From the NCBI GenBank assembly GCA_963788655.1, contig CAWBHS010000024.1:1-13164 (forward strand): a DNA stretch of 13,164 nt, read 5' to 3'. Position 1 is the stretch's first letter; every line of letters begins with the position of its first letter. Source of the stretch: an uncultured Verrucomicrobiae bacterium (GTDB lineage Bacteria; Verrucomicrobiota; Verrucomicrobiia; Limisphaerales; JAFGQR01). The notes under the pieces are model-generated. The model saw only the letters and a program-made list of their open reading frames with translations. It was not told the DNA's origin and ran no database searches. Shown here piece by piece: positions 1,938-12,389 of the stretch. The position numbers and the translations under genes are program-made.

Positions 1938-2040
1938 CAATGTCCAATGTCCAATCGACCAGTGGCAATCGTGCCAAGTCAGCTTCGTGCTTGGACTTTG
2001 GACATTCTCTGGTCCTTGGCTATTGCTCATTGGTCATTCA
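1938..2040. repeat. Short heptamer-repeat intergenic element (AATGTCC / TTGGACA / TTGGTCA-type blocks)
   Basis: aatgtccaatgtccaat, then the inverse-like ttggactttggacatt and ttggctattgctcattggtcattcatt; overlaps the aroC stop codon. Confidence 0.6.
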
Positions 2041-3122
2041 TTCCGCCGCATTGCGCCTGTTGCCGCAGCGCATGATCCACCAAGACCAAGGCCGTCATGG
2101 CTTCCACAATGGGAACAGCCCGCGGCAGGACACACGGGTCGTGCCGCCCGCGTCCTTTAAGGGTGGTATTGTGGAACGATTCATCCACGGTATTCTGCGC
2201 GTGCATAATGGTCGCCACGGGTTTGAAGGCGACCCGGAAATAAATCGTTTCTCCGTTGGAGATGCCGCCCTGCACACCACCGGAGCGGTTGGCGCTGGTT
2301 CGCACTTTCCCGGCCCGCATCCGAAACGGATCATTATGCGTTCGCCCGGTGAAGTTCACGCAGTCGAAGCCTGAGCCAATATCGAATCCCTTGGAGGCCG
2401 GCAAACTCAACATCGCTTTCGCCAGCTCGGCCTCGAGCCGGTCAAACACCGGCTCCCCCCAACCCGCCGGCACCCCGCGAGCAACACCGCCGACAATCCC
2501 ACCGACACTGTCGCCCGCTTGGCGCATTTTTTCGACGAGGCGGATCATCTTTGCTGCCATCGCCGCGTCCGGGCAGCGGATGATGTTGGCTTCGACGTTC
2601 TCGGGCTTTCACTTTGTTGGGGTCCACGTCAGCCTGGAGGCGCTGCACTTGTTGCACGTAGGCCAGGATTTCCACGCCGTAGCGTTCGCGCAGGAGCTTT
2701 TTCGCAATAGCTCCTGCGGCGACGCGGCCAATCGTTTCGCGCGCACTGCTACGTCCCCCACCCTGCCAATTGCGAACGCCATATTTGGCGAAATATGTGT
2801 AGTCGGCATGCGACGGCCGGAACTTGGTGGCCATCTCCGCATACGCTTCGGGACGCGCATCTTCATTGCGGACCCACAGGCAAATCGGGGTGCCCAGGGT
2901 CTGGCCATTGAAGATGCCGGAGAGGATTTGCACCGTGTCCGATTCCCGGCGTGGCGTGACAATTTTGGACTGCCCCGGACGCCGGCGGTCGAGGTCCGGT
3001 TGAATGTCGGCTTCGCTCAATCGGAGCCGCGGCGGGCAGCCATCCACCACCACGCCCACACCGCCGCCGTGAGATTCACCCCAGGTCGCAATCCGAAACA
3101 AATGGCCGAAAGTATTGCCCAT
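2027..3122 (-). CDS. aroC: Chorismate synthase, with one +1 frameshift near 2606-2609 (probably sequencing error)
   Basis: N-terminal [50 protein letters not shown]-terminal frame has [51 protein letters not shown]. Removing one base in aaa-g-ccc joins the two ORFs. Confidence 0.93.
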
Positions 3123-5403: not shown

Positions 5404-5419
5404 TGTTTTTCAGTGCTCT

Positions 5420-5645
5420 TTAGTGGTTTGATTGGACGAGTTCCGGTTCAGCTCGCAATTCCTCCGCGAGGGGACATTCGGCCGCCACCGGCCGGACTTC
5501 CACGCGGATGCCGTAGGGTAAGCCGGGACACTCCTGGGCGATGGCCACTGCCTCGTCGAGGGTGCCAACGTGCAGCAAAAAGTAGCCCCCGATGGTTTCC
5601 TTGGATTCGGCGAAGGGACCGTCCACCACCACTCGCCCAGCAGCT
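5420..5645 (-). pseudogene. YciI/DGPF-domain protein, C-terminal half only
   Basis: GRVVVDGPFAESKETIGGYFLL...DEAVAIAQECPG...VEVRPV is the DGPFAESKE signature; the N-terminal half is replaced by unrelated sequence. Confidence 0.85.
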
Positions 5646-5889
5646 CGGTGAACATGGGCGGCATCATCCATGCGATCATCCCGAGTCCCTTGACTGATGA
5701 AGATCCTAACCTCACAGAATCTGCAACCATCGGGAGGAAGGCCAAACACATATAAGCAAAAAACCATCTCAAGGAAAAGACAATGGGCCGGCGACCAATG
5801 AGGGTTTTGAGAGCAATGAAAATCAAGAAGGCCGACATCAGAATGCAGATGAGTGGCATTGCAACTTTGAAAAGGACGGGGGTATTCAT
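5640..5889 (-). pseudogene. Truncated integron-cassette-like membrane protein gene
   Basis: ATG about 20 nt after the attC GTTAGCA core; AT-richer than its neighbours; three hydrophobic segments; runs out of frame into the YciI remnant at ~5640. Confidence 0.6.
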
Positions 5890-5905
5890 AGTATTGTACT
5901 ATTTC

Positions 5906-6025
5906 TGCTAACGCCAGAACTGAGCGACAGCCGCCCCGCCTTAATAATGTCCGTGACTCTCGACAACCAGAGCGCGTTGCCGAAGTCCGCGACTCTCGAA
6001 GAGCAAAGCGGGGCGGCTGTTCGCT
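5906..6025 (-). other. attC (integron cassette recombination site), 3' portion, interrupted by the group II intron
   Basis: Minus strand: AGCGA-ACAGCCGCCCCGC ... GCGGGGCGGCTGT-CGCTCAGT-TCTGGC-GTTAGCA. Perfect 13-bp inverted repeat (5927-5939 / 6008-6020), an extrahelical base, L' box GCTCAGT, GTT core, followed directly by a gene start. Confidence 0.75.
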
Positions 6026-8208
6026 GCCGGGTAGGAGCCGGGGTTGCCCCCGACGCCCCCCACAGACCCGTGCGTGAAGTATTCCCTCACACGGTTCCTC
6101 AGTACCCACCGGTCGGTGGGTGTCCCAGGCCGTTCCCAGCCTGGGCGCATGACGCGTTGCTGCCCACACTCAAAACTCATGGACGATCCTCGGTTTCGGC
6201 AGTGGACAGATCGCCTGCCACCGCACCATCCATTGCTCCCAGTTCAGCCGGTGCTTGGAACTCCGACGGCTCAACCATCGCTTCCACACCCTCTCGGCGT
6301 GTTCATACGCAACTTCCAGCATCTTGAAGTTCCCGCGCACACCATAGTAATCATAGTGCCCGCGTAGTTTGGCCTTCAATATCCGGTGTTGCTCCACGAT
6401 GGGGTCGTGGCGGTGCCTGCGGCACCATTCGTGTATCCCGCTCAGGAACCGGCGCAGCCGTTTCCCCTGGGTTTTGCGTTTGATGGTCCAGCCACCCTTC
6501 AGGGTTTTCCCCCAGTAGTGGTTGAACCCCAGGAACGCGAACGTCCCAGGCCCTTTGCCCTTCCGCCCGAACGGACGACTGAATTGCACCAGCCGGCTTT
6601 TCTCCGGATGGATTCTCAGCCCATACCGCTTGAAGCGCTTGGGCAATACCCGGAACGCTTTCTCCGCGTCGGTCTTAATCGCAAAACCCATGACAAAGTC
6701 ATCCGCAAACCGCACCAGAAAGCAGTTCCCGCCCATGCGGGGTCGCACGACCGTTTCAAACCACTCGTCCAGCACCGTGTGCAGAAAGATGTTTGCCAAT
6801 ATGGGCGAGATCACTCCCCCTTGCGGGGTGCCCGTCTCACTCCGCTTCACTTGCCCTTCCTCCATCACGCCCACGTGCAGCCACATCCCGATCAGTCTCA
6901 GGAGCGCGCCGTCGTTGACGCGCTTTTGGAGGATCGCTCGCAAGTGCTTCGGCTCGATGGTATCAAAGAACTTGGCAATGTCGGCATCGATAATCCAATT
7001 GATGCCCAGCTTCAGACACTGGTCCCGCAGATAGCTCAGTGCTCCGTGCGCGCTGTGCCGCCGCCGAAAGCCATGCGAGAACCCATAAAAGTAGGGTTCA
7101 TAGATCGCTTCCAGCAGCATCGCCACCGCTCGTTGCACGATTTTATCTTCCAGGACCAGGATCGCCAGCGGTCGCTGGCTGCCGTCACGCTTGGGAATCC
7201 ACACCCGCCGGGCCGGTTGCGCCCGATATTTCCGGGTCTTCAACCGTTGCACCAGGTCGGCCAGGTTTTCCTTCAAGTTCAGCTTGTATTCCGCCACGGT
7301 CATCTGGTCGATGCCCGCCGCGGCGTCTTTACGCAGTTGGTGAAAGGCTTCCAAAAGGAAGTCCTCGTCCAGGTGATGAGCCAGGGTGGTAAACACCATC
7401 CCCGGCTCCCGTTTTGATTGCTCCGCAATCTGGGCCAGTCGCATGGATACCGTTGGTGCGCTCGAAGTCACTCCGGTAGTTCCCTGGTCCAGAGGTCATG
7501 CCCGGCTTCGCCTTCCCGCGGCCTCGCGGCCTGTATCGTGGGTCCCTTGGGCCTTGGTTCCCCACGCGTCCGGTCTGGGTGCCGCTCGGCTCCATGACCC
7601 GCGGTACTACGCGTTGCTACGACTACCTTCGTCCGTCCCGGTCGGTTCGCTTGCGGCTCCCTGCCGGTACCTTGGGTTGACGCGCGGCTCTTTGTGTTCC
7701 GTCCGGCTTGCGCCGGGTTTGGCTCGTTCACCGCCCGCCTCCAACGGTAAACGCCCGGGTATTGGTTATGCCGGTCACCCGTGTTCCGGCGGTTGGTCCC
7801 AAGGAGACGGGCGGTTCTCCCGAGTTCCCGGATTACCCCTTTAAGCATACGCCCCGATCTCAGATCCCGGATGGGTCCCGCCCCGCTGGCCTTAACGCGG
7901 ACAGGACGGCTGCCTTCCTCTCGCTGCACGAGTCGGCTTTCGTTCCGGTTGCCCGGACTTCTTCTCTGACCACCACGATACATTTTTCGGGATTCAATTC
8001 CGCGGCCTGCGCCCTCGCTTCCCCTCGGCTTCGCACACCGTCGGCTGACGATCGCACTTCGGTTCCGCTACCGACCCGATGGCTAGTCTTTGGTCGGGTG
8101 GGATTGGTCCGCACCCGCGGACGCACCCACTGGGTAATAATGACGAGTTTCAAGGGGGGTCACCTTGGGGGGCACCCCTATTCCATCGTCCCGAGCTTGT
8201 CTCGGCAC
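6026..8208 (-). mobile_element. Group II intron (retroelement), non-IIC, probably bacterial class E/F-like; 5' boundary 8208-8211
   Basis: 5' GTGCCGAGAC at 8208; about 740 nt structured 5' region; RT ORF; domain V GAACCGTGTGAGGGAATACTTCACGCACGGGTC (6097-6065); domain VI with GCAA loop and bulged A (6032) in CCTACCCGGC. Confidence 0.92.
6170..7471 (-). CDS. ltrA: Group II intron reverse transcriptase/maturase, no endonuclease domain
   Basis: RT0 (AAGIDQMT), RRVWIPK, RPLAI..DKIVQ, SHGFR, DADIAKFFD, GTPQGGVISPILANIFLH, RFADD, FAFLGF, X-domain LRGHYDYYG; ends PLPKPRIVH without HNH. Confidence 0.97.
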   Translation of the reverse strand: MTSSAPTVSMRLAQIAEQSKREPGMVFTTLAHHLDEDFLLEAFHQLRKDAAAGIDQMTVAEYKLNLKENLADLVQRLKTRKYRAQPARRVWIPKRDGSQRPLAILVLEDKIVQRAVAMLLEAIYEPYFYGFSHGFRRRHSAHGALSYLRDQCLKLGINWIIDADIAKFFDTIEPKHLRAILQKRVNDGALLRLIGMWLHVGVMEEGQVKRSETGTPQGGVISPILANIFLHTVLDEWFETVVRPRMGGNCFLVRFADDFVMGFAIKTDAEKAFRVLPKRFKRYGLRIHPEKSRLVQFSRPFGRKGKGPGTFAFLGFNHYWGKTLKGGWTIKRKTQGKRLRRFLSGIHEWCRRHRHDPIVEQHRILKAKLRGHYDYYGVRGNFKMLEVAYEHAERVWKRWLSRRSSKHRLNWEQWMVRWQAICPLPKPRIVHEF

Positions 8209-8210
8209 GA

Positions 8211-8478
8211 CCAGTGGCTGGCTAGCCCTTCGCTCAAGGCAGCGGTTGAATCCCTACGCCTGCCCTTGGCGTTGGAAACGCTGTATCGGTTGCGCCGCCA
8301 GCTGCGTGAGCGACTGGACCGGTTGCGCTCGCGGTTGTGTCGCGAACGCCCACCGCCGGCCAGCACGCAGGCCGATCCCTTAAGGCAAACCGTGGAGCAT
8401 CTCCAAAAGGTGTTCCCTGACTCGGCGTGTCCGCTCGCCGCCTTTCAACTCCATTTTCAGCAACCGTTCTTGGGATAA
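8211..8478 (+). pseudogene. C-terminal part of a transposon-associated hypothetical protein, cut by the intron
   Basis: QWLASPSLKAAVESLRLPLALETLYRL...PPPASTQADPLRQTVEHL...FQQPFLG* is protein-like, has no start outside the intron and sits just upstream of the transposase. Confidence 0.55.
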
Positions 8479-8678: not shown

Positions 8679-9923
8679 ATGCGCAATCCAACGGCTTATC
8701 TGAAAATGCGAGTGCTGGGGGCCATCGACATGGCCGCAGGGCAACTCGATTACTGGCCCGCATCAAAGCCGTCAGCCAGATGACGTTCACCGATGAGGAG
8801 GGCCATCCCCGCCAGTTCACCTGGCGCACCATCCAAACCTGGTATTCCCGCTACCAGAAACACGGCGTCACCGTCATGGAAAACCAAGCCCGCTCCGACA
8901 AGGGCAAAGTCCGCAAGGTGGTGCTAGAAGACGTGGCCGAGGCGATCCGCCAGGTGCTGCCCAAAGTCCACGGCAAAACGCCTTCCCGCGCCTTGCTCTA
9001 CCGGCTGTGCATCGAGGCAGGACTGCTCACCCGCTCGCAAATCGCGCCCAACACCTTCCGCCGCGTGGTCAAACAATACGAGTTGCTCAAGCCCGATCGC
9101 GGAGTGCTCGAACAAACTGCGACTGGCCTTTGCCAAGGCCCACGCCAACGAAATGTGGCAGGCCGACACGCTCTACGGGCCCTTCATTCCGGTCAAGGCG
9201 TTCCCCGGTGCAAACCCGGCTCATCGCCTTCCTGGATGACGCCTCGCGCGTTTGTTGCCACGGCCAGTTCTTCGCCGGCGGAAAACGTGGACACGCTCAT
9301 CGAGGCCTTGCGCGCGGCCTTCTACAAACGCGGCGTACCCCAATGCCCTCTATGTGGACAACGGATCGATCTACGCCTCCAAAGAAATCATCCAAATCTG
9401 CGCCCGCGTCGGCTGTCTGCTCCTCCACACGCCCGTGCGCGACGGCGCCGCCAAGGGAAAAATCGAACGGTTCTTCCGCACCGTGCGCGACCAGTTCCTC
9501 GCCCGCGAGCTGGATCTGTCCTCGCTCGAGGCGCTCAACCGCCAGTTCACCGCTTGGGTCGAGGAACACTACAACGCCCAAAAGCATTCGGTGCTGGGCA
9601 TGACGCCCGCTGGACCGCTTTGCGCTGGACCGAAATCGCATCCGCTTCCTGCCGCCCAACGAGGCCAACGACGAACTGTTCTTCGTCGAGGAAGAGCGCC
9701 ACGTCCGCGCCGACAACACCTTCTCCTTCAAGATCGTGCGCTTCGAAGCCCCGCGCCACCTGCCCGACCGCACCATCCAGATCCGCTTCGAGCGTTCGCA
9801 GCCCACGCGCGCGTCGTCGTTTATTACAAAGGCGAACGCATGGGCGAAGCCCGTCCGCTCAACCCCATCGCCAATGACCGCAAACCCTCAACTCGAAACA
9901 CTCCACCTACAACCGACTTATGA
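8679..9923 (+). CDS. DDE-type integrase/transposase (rve core, Mu-transposase C-terminal like), multiply frameshifted
   Basis: Stitched frames: MRNPTAYLKMRVLGAID, FTWRTIQTWYSRY (HTH), RSDKG, ANEMWQADT (D), RLIAFLDDASR, LYVDNGSIY (D), KGKIERFFRTVRDQFL (E), YNAQKHS, RHVRADNTFS. Confidence 0.88.
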
Positions 9924-10741
9924 TCCGCTCCCACTTCGGCCTCCACGCAACCCCTTCGACACCGAGTCCCTCACCCTGCTGGCCCACCAGCAGGAAGTCT
10001 TCGACATCCTCCAAGTCCACGCCCAGCAGGGCGGCCTGTGCCTGGTGCTCGGCGAACCCGGCACCGGCAAGAGCGTCCTCAAACAGGCCCTGCTCACCCA
10101 CGATCCCAAACGCATGATCACGCCCGTGGTCAATCGCACCCTGCACACCTATCACAACACCCTGCGCATCCTTTGCGACGCCTTCCAGATCGAGTTCGAC
10201 GGGCGCGACCACCACTGCGAACGGCTCCTGGTCCAGCAGGCCTTCAGCGTCCACCGCGCCGGCAAGATGCTCGTCCCCATCATCGACGACGCCCACCTCA
10301 TGCCCACCGACTGCCTGCGCAAACTCCGCCTGCTTGTGCGAGGACTTTCCCCGCTCCCACAACCTGGTGCTCATCGGCCAGCCCCCGCTCATGCAATCCC
10401 TGACCCTGTCCATCAACGAGGAAATCCGCTCCCGCGTCACCTACTCGGCCCTGCTTGCCGCGCCTGGGTCCCGAAGCCGTCGAACAGTTCATCCTCGACC
10501 AACTCGACCGCGCCGGCCTGGGCCACAACACCTTCACCGCCGAAGCCCTCGCGCTCATCGTCCGCTCCGGCGAAGGCCTCCTGCGCCGCACCCGCAACCT
10601 GTGCCTGGGCGCGCTCATCGAAGCCGTGCGCGACCAGACCCGCACCGTCGACCTCAAACAAGTCAACCGCGTCCTCCTCCAACCCCACTGGCGAAAAGAC
10701 TATGACCAACCCGCTCCCCTACAACCCCGGTGGACGCGTGA
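9920..10741 (+). CDS. ExeA/GspA-type AAA+ ATPase (transposition helper, MuB/TnsC/IstB analogue), frameshifted
   Basis: MIRSHFGL..NPF start with ATGA coupling to the transposase; Walker A GEPGTGKS; Walker B IIDDAH; LVLIGQPPL; IRSRV; SGEGLLRRTRNLC. End approximate. Confidence 0.85.
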
Positions 10742-10980
10742 GCAAATCCGCGCCGCCCGGCTGGCCCCGCTCGTGCCGCTGCTCGAAAAGCGCGGGCTCG
10801 AACTCGTCGAACCGCGCGGCCGGCAACTTCAATTTGCCCGCCTATCCCGGCCTGATCGTCAAAGACAGCTACTGGCGCTGGCCCGAACGCGACCTGGCCG
10901 GCAACGCCATCGACTTCTTCATGCACGTGCTGGGCCTGTCCTTCCACGACGCCATGCGCCAGATCACCGGTGCGCAATAG
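10702..10980 (+). CDS. Small hypothetical protein resembling a primase N-terminal (CHC2-type) domain without the Cys ligands, frameshifted
   Basis: Stitched: MTNPLP..WTREQIRAARLAPLVPLLEKRGLELVERAAGNFNLPAYPGLIVKDSYWRWPERDLAGNAIDFFMHVLGLSFHDAMRQI. GNAIDF...GLSFxDA matches the DnaG/CHC2 tail pattern. Confidence 0.55.
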   Translation: MTNPLPYNPGGRVSKSAPPGWPRSCRCSKSAGSNSSNRAAGNFNLPAYPGLIVKDSYWRWPERDLAGNAIDFFMHVLGLSFHDAMRQITGAQ

Positions 10981-11055
10981 AACTGCAACCGGCTCCGGAC
11001 TTTGTCGCCGTACGACCTCAGTTCGGACACCGGCCCGCATCCAATCAAAATCGGG

Positions 11056-12389
11056 ATCGGTGTCAAACCTAGGGAGCTATCATCTCGCATACAAGGCCTT
11101 GAGCCGGAGCACGGCGACGGCTTCCGTCGCTTGGTCCTGGAGGGAATGGCGAATCCATCGGATGAACTTCACGCTGCGCTGGGTGGCCCTTCGCGCTTGC
11201 ACCACCAGGGCGAAAGGGACTGGCCCGCGGCCGACATTTCGTGTTCGCCGCTTGCGTTCGTTGGGCCCGCCGTTGGTCTTCGGCTTGGTTGGTGACCCCG
11301 TGCTCGGTCGCCAACGTTTGTTCGTAGCCCAGCAGCAGATTGTGCGTCATCGCGATCAATTGCGCTTGGGCCGTCTTTGGCCACCAAGCTCGTCGCCCAG
11401 GCTTTCTTTTCGGTCAGCTTGTTCTTGATCTCATCGAACACTTTCTCCACTTCCCAGCGCCGCCGATACAATTCGGCGATGACGCCCGGCGGCAGGTCCA
11501 TCTCATTGGTCAAGAACTCATACCGCTCGCCGGTGAGCGGATCAGTGTAGTAAACAATCCGCAAGGCATGTCCTTCGCGCGTCCGCACCTGCCGGTCTTC
11601 GGTCACCCCGGCGTTGCGGGGATCGGACTCGTCCCAGGGCACGCTCTCGAGCCAATCGTAAACCATGTTCTCTTTCACTCGGCTCAGGAAATAGACCGCG
11701 CATTCCTGGCGGCAGCGCTTCCAATAGTGGAAATCAATGCCCGCTTTGTCATAGATGCAGATCACCCGTTTGCCCTTCGGCACCCGCTGTCGCAGACCTT
11801 TGGGTTTGATCCGTTTGAGCGCACTCATGTCGTGTTCGTGTAAGCCCTGGCCGGCGGCCAAGTGCTCCAGCAGCTGCGTCCGCAGGTTCAGACTATAAAA
11901 ATGGCCCACCGCCAGCTTGGCGCCCTCGTGGCGCGGATCGTGGGTCGCCGCCTGATGCCAGTGGCCGTCTTGAGTAAAGCATTCATACTGGGCTAACTCG
12001 GGAATCGCCGCCAACCGATCGTGGAGGGGGCGGTGGGCCGCCGTGAGCAACGTGAGGTTGACCGCGCGCAGGACCGCGCCGCGGCGGGCGCTCTGCAGGG
12101 CCGCAAAGTAATTGGAAGTAGCCCGGGGTGTTCGCGAAGCGCAGCCCGTGTTCCTGGAGAAAGCCCCGGCCACTTGCCGAGCGTTCGAGCACGCGTTGGA
12201 CGCCCAAGCGGAGGAACGCTTCATCCGGGAACTCCGGGCACGGACGCGCGTGCGAACTAGCGGCGGCCAGGCCGTTGAGTGGTTGAAAGATGGTCTGATT
12301 CACGGTGTTATGTTTTTGAGTAATAGGCATTGAAGCAATTTTGGCGGCCCACGGCCCTGTCAAGCCTATTTGTTGACCTTATACGCCTC
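11056..12389 (-). mobile_element. IS4-family insertion sequence; boundaries tentative
   Basis: Single DDE transposase; weak terminal similarity (GGTGTCAAA vs GGCGTATAA) and CGGG on both flanks (11052-11055, 12390-12393). Confidence 0.6.
11080..12330 (-). CDS. IS4-family (DDE_Tnp_1) transposase, frameshifted
   Basis: ATG 12330 MPITQKH; QDGHW (D), IYDKAGID (D), YEFLTNEM, LYRRRWEVEKVFDEIK (IS4 YREK motif); C-terminus RATQRSVKFIRWIR...LYAR*. Frameshifts near 12117, 11375 and ~11210-11250. Confidence 0.88.

Follow-up and report, generated by a model that had tools for sequence, protein, structure and literature searches.

A class E-like group II intron lineage found in the sense strand of integron attC sites

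Contig CAWBHS010000024.1 of an uncultured Verrucomicrobiae bacterium (assembly GCA_963788655.1) carries a group II intron that splits an integron attC site. This contig, C24 of an 8.96-Mb draft genome, was analyzed over its whole length of 13,164 bp and is called the window here; contigs of the same genome are given as C and compared loci as L, each with a number. The intron is very probably a member of a widespread, class E-like lineage with a IIB-type RNA and no endonuclease that retrohomes specifically into attC sites. Comparison of its copies places the insertion, precisely and in a single orientation, at one attC position across many attC families, and an intron loop covaries with the L'' box that lies directly 5' of the insertion point. 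A preliminary description of this DNA had proposed a separate lineage that homes to attC sites in the sense orientation by pairing with L'', and the reverse transcriptase (RT) tree, the covariation of exon-binding site 1 (EBS1) and the conservation of an AAC triplet in 64 of 66 5' exons all support that proposal.

Boundaries and ends of the intron

The attC family that the intron splits has three uninterrupted members in the same genome (C49:299127-299235, C38:55542-55657 and C9:2767-2650). These empty sites read ..CACTGG AGCGAAC.., and the window intron lies between the G and the A without any duplication, which fixes its two ends (Table 1). The preliminary description had placed a group II intron on the minus strand within 5906-8230, and the matches to RF02005 and TIGR04416 bear this out, with an RF00029 match just under its gathering score beside them. 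That span does hold the intron, but it corresponds to the split attC plus the intron, the intron itself being 8210-6026, and set against the empty sites the rejoined junction given there, CCACTG/CAGCG, was off by one base on either side.

The single open reading frame (ORF) of the intron is intact and includes the FADD motif. It has RVT_1 as its sole Pfam match, with no nuclease match at E-values up to 0.01, and scores 333.9 bits (cut-off 300) over the full length of NCBIfam TIGR04416, the model of group II intron RT/maturases; it ends past the maturase region, without an endonuclease (D/En) domain. Subtraction of its 1302 nucleotides (nt) from the 2185 nt of the intron leaves a non-coding RNA of about 880 nt. 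Three further copies reside in the same genome: C38 has a complete one (89% identical), C62 one without the ORF, and C59 a fragment. Five close copies, with 73-90% amino acid identity, were found in metagenome-assembled genomes (MAGs) labelled Acidobacteriota, Verrucomicrobiota and Candidatus Thiosymbion; the 3' end falls at the identical base in all five, and the 5' start is identical wherever the junction is on the contig.

With the ends 5'-UCGUG...GGC-3', the window intron departs from the group II consensus GUGYG...AY. Across the clade (L025-L047 compared), however, the 5' ends are UCGUG, UUGCG or UCGCG, with a U at position 1, and the 3' ends are GGC, so that the non-consensus ends, being common to the whole clade, are best regarded as a clade variant and not as a defect. 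A GUGCG at 8126, 86 nt inside the unit, was considered as an alternative 5' splice site; the leader would then have been a small ribozyme, the remnant of a twintron or an exon carried along. This start was rejected because the homologous 5' segment of distant relatives begins with UUGCG or UCGCG, and because the pairing of EBS1 with intron-binding site 1 (IBS1) fits only the boundary 8211/8210. The relatives concerned, with 45-52% amino acid identity and strong D1D4-6 matches, carry this segment followed by a hairpin and have a 3' end reading ..CUACUCGGC. Compensatory changes occur in the 5' hairpins of L019, L020 and the C59 copy, and Rfam returned no other RNA family for the leader region at E-values up to 5. 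In domain V, the usual AGC triad is replaced by AAC (6096-6094), with a G opposite the middle A; AAC is present in 10 of the 11 relatives aligned with the window copy (L025-L037, L047), and AGC is kept in the class E reference L045 and in L041. A putative bulged branch-point A lies at 6032, the seventh base from the 3' end.

attC targets across the lineage

Metagenome contigs were scanned with a 30-letter degenerate pattern of the conserved 5' segment, which gave at least 120 matches; 80 loci were fetched, and the exon and loop counts that follow rest on these. The junction TCG[TC]GCC is present in 70 of the 80, which together supply 66 distinct 5' exons, and the remaining ten comprise four loci that start with TTGCGTCA in AT-rich flanks, two false picks of the 5' end and four without a junction.

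The AAC of the R'' box starts at -14 or -13 in 64 of the 66 distinct 5' exons, an arrangement expected in about 3% by chance, and the commonest R'' 7-mers are GCCGAAC (16), GCCTAAC (8) and GGCTAAC (7). On the other side of the intron, the +1 base is A in all 23 of the 3' exons found. Read in the sense of the intron, the 5' flank consists of an R''-like box, about 5 bases of spacer and a box of 6 bases; past the intron come A(G/C)CGAA, a stem that is long and imperfect, then TCG(C/G)T, (C/G)AG.. and GTTRRRY. When joined, the exons fold as attC-type hairpins in which the R boxes are paired and the -1 base is unpaired, with R'' and R' complementary at 7 of 7 positions in L080 and L126. Moreover, among the 64 loci with enough upstream DNA, 49 have a sense ORF of at least 60 codons whose stop lies 8-60 nt before the junction, as in the ORF-then-attC layout of a cassette. 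The intron reads from R'' to R', in the sense of the cassette. A copy on a Desulfosarcina plasmid (49.5% amino acid identity) occupies the same kind of site, and alphaproteobacterial and other relatives outside the attC clade lie in ordinary flanking sequence. The AAC count, the attC-type folds and the ORF stops agree with the preliminary description in that homologous introns have attC-like flanks, and the R''-to-R' reading, the ORF stops and the array sense of the C59 copy agree with it in that insertion is in the sense strand.

A few loci differ from this pattern. L070, L095, L113 and L133 (also L056 and L074) have the conserved 5' segment and start with TTGCGTCA, in AT-rich flanks that end ..ATAT and have no R'' box; the loci with this start look like a sister group with a different target. 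A distant relative in a gammaproteobacterial MAG (L038:2300-2420, 39% amino acid identity) starts right after the GTTAGA of an attC-like hairpin, a different attC-associated position that resembles that of UHB.I2 (PMC7923331). Two introns of one MAG, with 51-52% amino acid identity to that of the window, sit in opposite orientation at both ends of one element of about 170 nt (L023:1435-1600, L024:1400-1570), recalling the homing of some introns into the two inverted repeats of an insertion sequence. In L046:2891-4302, L037:6294-6598 and L039:2970-3142, a second, unrelated group II intron follows a few hundred bases downstream, with a match to D1D4-4 or to D1D4-3 with D1D4-1.

Pairing of EBS1 with the L'' box

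The candidate EBS1 hairpin has its loop at 7929-7921, beginning at intron position 282. Covariation was measured as mutual information over 56 non-redundant copies, and the top intron column was taken for each exon position. Exon -1 goes with intron 284 (paired in 87%), -4 with 287 (84%), -5 with 288 (80%) and -6 with 289 (75%), exon -3 being a nearly invariant T; these columns define EBS1 as intron positions 284-289. At least six contiguous pairs anchored at -1 occur in 21 of 40 distinct exon/loop pairs, compared with 6.3% when the loops are dealt to other exons. In the C38 copy, the 5' exon ends in GCGAUGG and the loop reads CCAUCGC (7/7); in the C62 copy, the exon end GGAUGC faces GCAUCC (6/6); in L020 and L021, CACUGG faces CCAGUG (6/6); and in L019, CGCUGC faces GCAGUG (6/6, with one G-U pair).

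No consistent EBS2 partner for exon positions -7 to -14 emerged either by complementarity or by mutual information, and EBS3 could not be located. The conserved R'' box may be read by the protein or by its shape, or it may be present merely because every target is an attC.

The stem-loop at 7929-7921 had been proposed as EBS1 at the outset, and both the covariation with the 5' exon and the excess of matched over reshuffled pairs argue for that assignment. The same proposal had the pairing run across the junction, and it was found with the 5' exon only. It had also described the complement of the loop as a common L'' sequence of attC sites: CGCUGC, with which the window's EBS1 (GCAGCG) pairs, is indeed a common L'' among the targets, but at its own locus the loop finds only a partial partner.

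Class of the intron

The relationships of the RT were examined in a maximum-likelihood tree of 29 RTs, with five partial ones left out. What is taken below from PMC5027574, PMC5894124, PMC4424553 and PMC7923331 refers to excerpts of these articles. The known attC-inserting intron Kl.pn.I3, described as "group IIc" and as disrupting an attC (PMC5027574), was represented by a full copy from another plasmid (99.9% identical to the region on p1220-IMP), the RT on p1220-IMP itself being only partial. The classes of the class D intron of pBpOF4-01, of Ni.ha.I1 (F/g3) and of Sr.me.I2 (g1) were taken from Tables S1 and S2 of PMC3552965. For class E, a disrupted intron, S.me.I4, is located on pRmeGR4b (PMC5894124), and the Sinorhizobium meliloti intron type with a disrupted copy on that plasmid stood in.

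The window RT falls in a clade of 25 that includes the class E reference (support 94/97), outside which the references for C, D, F and g1 fall on long branches; within the tree, the attC-inserted introns form a clade of their own (95/95). The RTs of the window and of Kl.pn.I3 share 27.8% identity, and Kl.pn.I3 occupies a separate long branch. Rfam assigns Kl.pn.I3 to D1D4-3 and D1D4-1, the class D reference to D1D4-2, Ni.ha.I1 to D1D4-4 and the class E type to D1D4-6, which is also the family of the window intron and is matched in 18 of 20 loci of its relatives; Sr.me.I2 matches no D1-D4 family. Tree and RNA family together support the view that the intron is not of class C and is class E-like, with a probable IIB-type RNA, in keeping with the non-IIC identity that had been suggested for it. 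The class E reference and the window intron share one RT clade, D1D4-6 and the lack of an endonuclease domain, yet their RTs are only 43.7% identical, and the class E reference and alphaproteobacterial relatives reside in ordinary homing sites and not in attC. Further marks of the attC lineage are U in place of G at its first base, additional hairpins close to the 5' end and, in domain V, AAC for AGC.

The split attC and its genomic setting

The two arms of the attC frame the intron in the window (Table 1). The 120 bases 3' of the intron are 82-90% identical to the three uninterrupted copies in the same genome, and the same attC family also carries the intron copies L020 and L021. The R'' box of the window and its R' box, GTTAGCA, are complementary save at one position, and the AAC that family members keep is lost.

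Table 1. Features of the intron and of the attC that it splits, in window coordinates
Feature	Position	Strand	Basis
3' part of attC: 3' exon AGCGAAC, long imperfect stem, TCGCT (5927-5923), L' CAGT (5922-5919), R' GTTAGCA (5912-5906)	5906..6025	-	Repeat family
Group II intron, 2185 nt, class E-like (supported), without endonuclease	6026..8210	-	Empty sites, four same-genome copies, five close copies, 5' end shared with relatives
Domains V and VI; domain V about 6097-6065	6026..6099	-	RF00029, 37.9 bits (gathering score 40)
RT/maturase, 433 amino acids	6170..7471	-	RVT_1, TIGR04416, FADD, tree
Domain I core	7855..8107	-	RF02005 (group-II-D1D4-6), 55.5 bits (gathering score 49)
EBS1 hairpin, GCCGAC-stem-loop-stem-GGAAGGC; EBS1 GCAGCG at 7927-7922	7912..7937	-	Covariation
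5'-terminal part of domain I beyond the Rfam model: two hairpins and conserved UUACCCAGUGGGUG segment	8108..8210	-	Homology to relatives, compensatory hairpins, EBS1-IBS1 boundary
L'' box (IBS1), CACTGG; last G is the extrahelical (unpaired) base	8211..8216	-	Directly 5' of insertion, covariation, folds of relatives
R''-like box GGCTAGC, degenerate (AGC for AAC)	8221..8227	-	Alignment with family members (GGCTAAC or GCCCAAC)

Elsewhere in the genome, three matches to TIGR02249 (integron integrase) exceed the cut-off: C59:66134-67021 (396.6 bits, one in-frame TAA), C49:288364-289293 (352.1 bits, one TAG) and C69:40024-40947 (274.7 bits, no stop). On C59, uninterrupted sites of the same architecture at 65479-65387 and 62497-62405 are 0.65 and 3.6 kb away from intI and on the other strand, which is the canonical orientation, and the C59 intron copy is found further along this array in the sense of the array. 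On C49, one member of the window's attC family lies 10 kb from intI. Unoccupied left arms of the same architecture number three with an L'' matching the window EBS1 and about 18 more, distributed over at least 13 contigs of the genome.

The surroundings of the split attC within the window hold genes of several kinds. Just upstream of it, transposition genes extend over 8780-12224: an rve-type integrase core with an AAA ATPase, spread over several frames (8780-11072, plus strand), and an IS4-like DDE transposase (12224-11169, minus strand). These genes may have severed the split attC from its array. Directly past R' (5410-6169, minus strand), an ORF from 5889 has a hydrophobic N-terminus, and a YCII-domain C-terminus is encoded there in a different frame. 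After a gap of 46 nt, which contains no attC, comes a glyoxalase-like ORF (5364-4957, minus strand). A chorismate synthase gene (2027-3122, minus strand) is present in two overlapping frames, 3122-2442 and 2560-2027, through a frameshift or an assembly error.

State of the window copy

The copy in the window may be an ectopic or a decaying insertion, predicted to splice poorly, as its partial match of EBS1 to L'', its mutated R'' box and its domain I score suggest. That score, 55.5 bits, is the lowest among the close copies, the others reaching 74, 85.7, 87.7 and 99.2, and the second 5' hairpin contains a 12-nt insertion. The stronger statement, that the intron is a dead or crippled relic that does not splice, and hence a polar insertion fusing two cassettes and not a reversible lock, is almost evenly balanced, with the balance slightly on the negative side. 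In its favor are the features just named, including the mismatch at -1 within the EBS1-IBS1 pairing, together with domains V-VI that score under the gathering threshold. Against it, the RT ORF is intact over all of TIGR04416, domains V and VI hardly differ from their counterparts in C38 and L020, and three unoccupied attC left arms in the same genome match the window EBS1 perfectly (C22:178938, C62:15240 and C67:26765), so that the element could still move.

No sequencing run contained more than 12% of the sampled words. An RNA library from sediment yielded a 2178-nt contig, about 91% alike, that spans 6025-8214, exactly the intron. It is only a hint: as repeat contigs break at the ends of elements and DNA occurs in RNA libraries, such a contig shows neither transcription nor excision.

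Weighing the alternatives

That the intron belongs to IIC-attC, the lineage already known to insert into attC sites, or is a close derivative of it, has next to no probability. The location in an attC and the absence of an endonuclease domain, as in class C, would fit, but the RT is far from that of Kl.pn.I3, the RNA of some 880 non-coding nt matches D1D4-6 and neither D1D4-3 nor D1D4-1, the orientation is sense here and antisense to its cassette in Kl.pn.I3, and the site is the L''/stem border and not beside R''. An old insertion that has no attC specificity of its own and is carried about passively, as the integrase or recombination moves its cassette, is highly improbable as well. Cassettes do move with their attC, and one attC family holds the window, L020 and L021 copies; however, the 66 distinct 5' exons and several unrelated attC stems speak against a single event, the flanks are not identical, and empty sites of the same family exist. 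The EBS1 sequence, moreover, varies among copies and fits each L'', which requires independent retrohoming events. Hardly more credit can be given to the idea that the flanking hairpins are another palindromic repeat family resembling attC, for which the window, with neither an intI nor a second attC nor a clear upstream cassette ORF and with an R'' that has lost its AAC, offers some grounds. The hairpins have complementary RYYYAAC/GTTRRRY ends, the spacer, L boxes with an unpaired base and variable stems; the identical architecture recurs beside the C59 intI in canonical orientation, and near the C49 intI through a family member; and ORFs end just before R'' at most of the loci examined.

The preferred reading, that of an endonuclease-less, class E-like lineage that retrohomes into attC sites, has observations of its own to contend with, and the following weigh against it. 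Pairing is often imperfect, with fewer than six contiguous pairs in 19 of the 40 exon/loop pairs, and the Desulfosarcina copy (L047/L116) has no EBS1-exon match at all. At the window's own locus, GCAGCG pairs with CACUGG at 4 of 6 positions, with a mismatch at -1, and the C59 fragment, an insertion in another attC with an identical loop, likewise reaches 4/6. A strict automatic test for attC sites (R''/R' complementary at 5/7 or more and paired in the minimum-free-energy fold) was passed by 7 of 17 joined-exon sets; several of the failures, not all of which were checked, trace to wrong R' picks or short flanks. The match to RF00029 falls just below the gathering score, where relatives score 40-55 bits, and two of the three intI matches carry an in-frame stop. 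The window holds no intI and, upstream, no ORF that is convincing as a cassette gene; frames that end just before R'' are not coding-like. No second attC was found there by a home-made scanner (AAC...GTT ends, complementarity of 6/7 or more, paired in a DNA fold), so that the window is no clear cassette array. On the genome up to contig C67 this scanner returned 385 matches, many of them both-strand palindromes, and it was therefore too unspecific for mapping arrays and was used only for sites near intI. The class label, for its part, depends on a single reference for each class, with B, CL and ML unrepresented, and on a class E stand-in identified by matching the description in a paper and not by a database name. 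Finally, the core reading was reached by comparing sequences, and splicing, mobility and the action of the integrase are predictions from that comparison.

Proposed mechanism

Comparison of the copies places the intron in the top strand, the cassette-sense one, at the border of the L'' box and the variable stem, with the unpaired base immediately on its 5' side and the A on its 3' side. By ordinary group II pairing, the six-base EBS1 loop pairs with L'' as IBS1, and its variants have diversified to fit the L'' of different attC families. The invariant +1 A would probably be read by a U at EBS3, and contacts with the protein or recognition of shape probably account for the reading of the R'' AAC, which lies 11-12 bases upstream, and possibly of the folded top strand, a suggestion that follows from the failure to find an EBS2 partner. 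Reverse splicing into the top strand may be expected by analogy with endonuclease-less introns (PMC4424553, PMC5894124). As there is no endonuclease, the cDNA would probably be primed from the replication fork, again as in other introns of that kind (PMC4424553, PMC5894124). Once in place, the 2.2-kb insert between the arms should prevent folding of the attC and hence its use by the integrase, and cassette transcripts could be freed of the intron by splicing. The preliminary description had proposed both effects, and with them an integron-array parasite or cassette lock.

It is enticing to go further and to speculate, tentatively and with more doubt than conviction, that attC targeting evolved a second time, in a class E-derived lineage whose retargetable EBS1 reads the top-strand L'', so that the intron acts as a reversible cassette lock and EBS1 drift follows attC families across phyla. 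The intron would then take advantage of the strand left unused by the integrase, at a position adjoining the extrahelical base. In chromosomal integron arrays, the top strand is perhaps usually the lagging-strand template; if so, it is also the strand that an endonuclease-less intron needs. As a lock, the split attC would be unable to fold and the upstream cassette would be frozen in the array, with read-through transcripts left intact after splicing.

Relation to known systems

Soil and sediment metagenomes commonly contain the lineage, and as the bins are labelled as several phyla, it may regularly inhabit environmental integrons and affect the excision, fusion and expression of cassettes. 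The observations point to a second, independent route by which group II introns colonize integron cassette arrays, make testable the long-discussed question of how far retroelements shape these arrays, and provide a natural intron scaffold that has a structured recombination site as its target.

Introns that target attC sites are known already, and the present one is no new kind of element; it represents a different class with a different attC specificity, in that it lies in the sense strand, pairs with L'' and keeps to one position beside the unpaired base. The introns of the IIC-attC group (S.ma.I2, Kl.pn.I3) resemble the window lineage in having no endonuclease domain, in having attC sites as natural targets and in splitting the attC on insertion, but they belong to a different RT class and RNA family. 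As Leon and Roy in 2009 and Quiroga in 2008 reportedly established, IIC-attC introns recognize the folded bottom strand, with an IBS1 that is very short and adjoins R''. The window lineage, by contrast, is found in the sense strand between L'' and the stem, with a six-base EBS1 that covaries with L''. IIC-attC introns are antisense to cassettes, as is Kl.pn.I3 with respect to blaIMP-4 and as is stated in general terms by Sonbol and Siam (PMC7923331). A review of bacterial group II introns distinguishes three target specificities and, in the part drawn on here, gives class C as the only one that targets attC sites and terminators (PMC4424553).

Also comparable are the IIB introns UHB.I2, H.ha.F1 and H.ha.F2 that Sonbol and Siam (2021) reported with integrons in hypersaline samples (PMC7923331). 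Like the window intron, these are non-IIC and reside in cassette arrays or in clusters of attC sites lacking integron integrases (CALINs), UHB.I2 in cassette orientation (PMC7923331). Unlike it, UHB.I2 is of class CL1, sits immediately past a complete attC and has exons of low conservation; H.ha.F1 and H.ha.F2, of class E and in that respect resembling the window intron, are 5'-truncated fragments in a CALIN (PMC7923331). The excerpted text of that article mentions no EBS1-attC pairing, insertion point or lineage-wide specificity, on which its supplementary figures S7 and S10 may bear. A full-text literature search found no further paper on non-IIC introns in integrons; most subscription journals lay outside its scope, and an earlier description is possible.

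With respect to mobility, a parallel is the class D intron RmInt1, which, as is likely for the window intron, combines EBS/IBS-guided reverse splicing and subsequent replication-fork priming with a protein unable to cut the second strand (PMC5894124, PMC4424553). The two differ in RNA family, the class D reference matching D1D4-2, and in target, which for RmInt1 is an insertion sequence; in the window lineage, no EBS2-IBS2 covariation was found.

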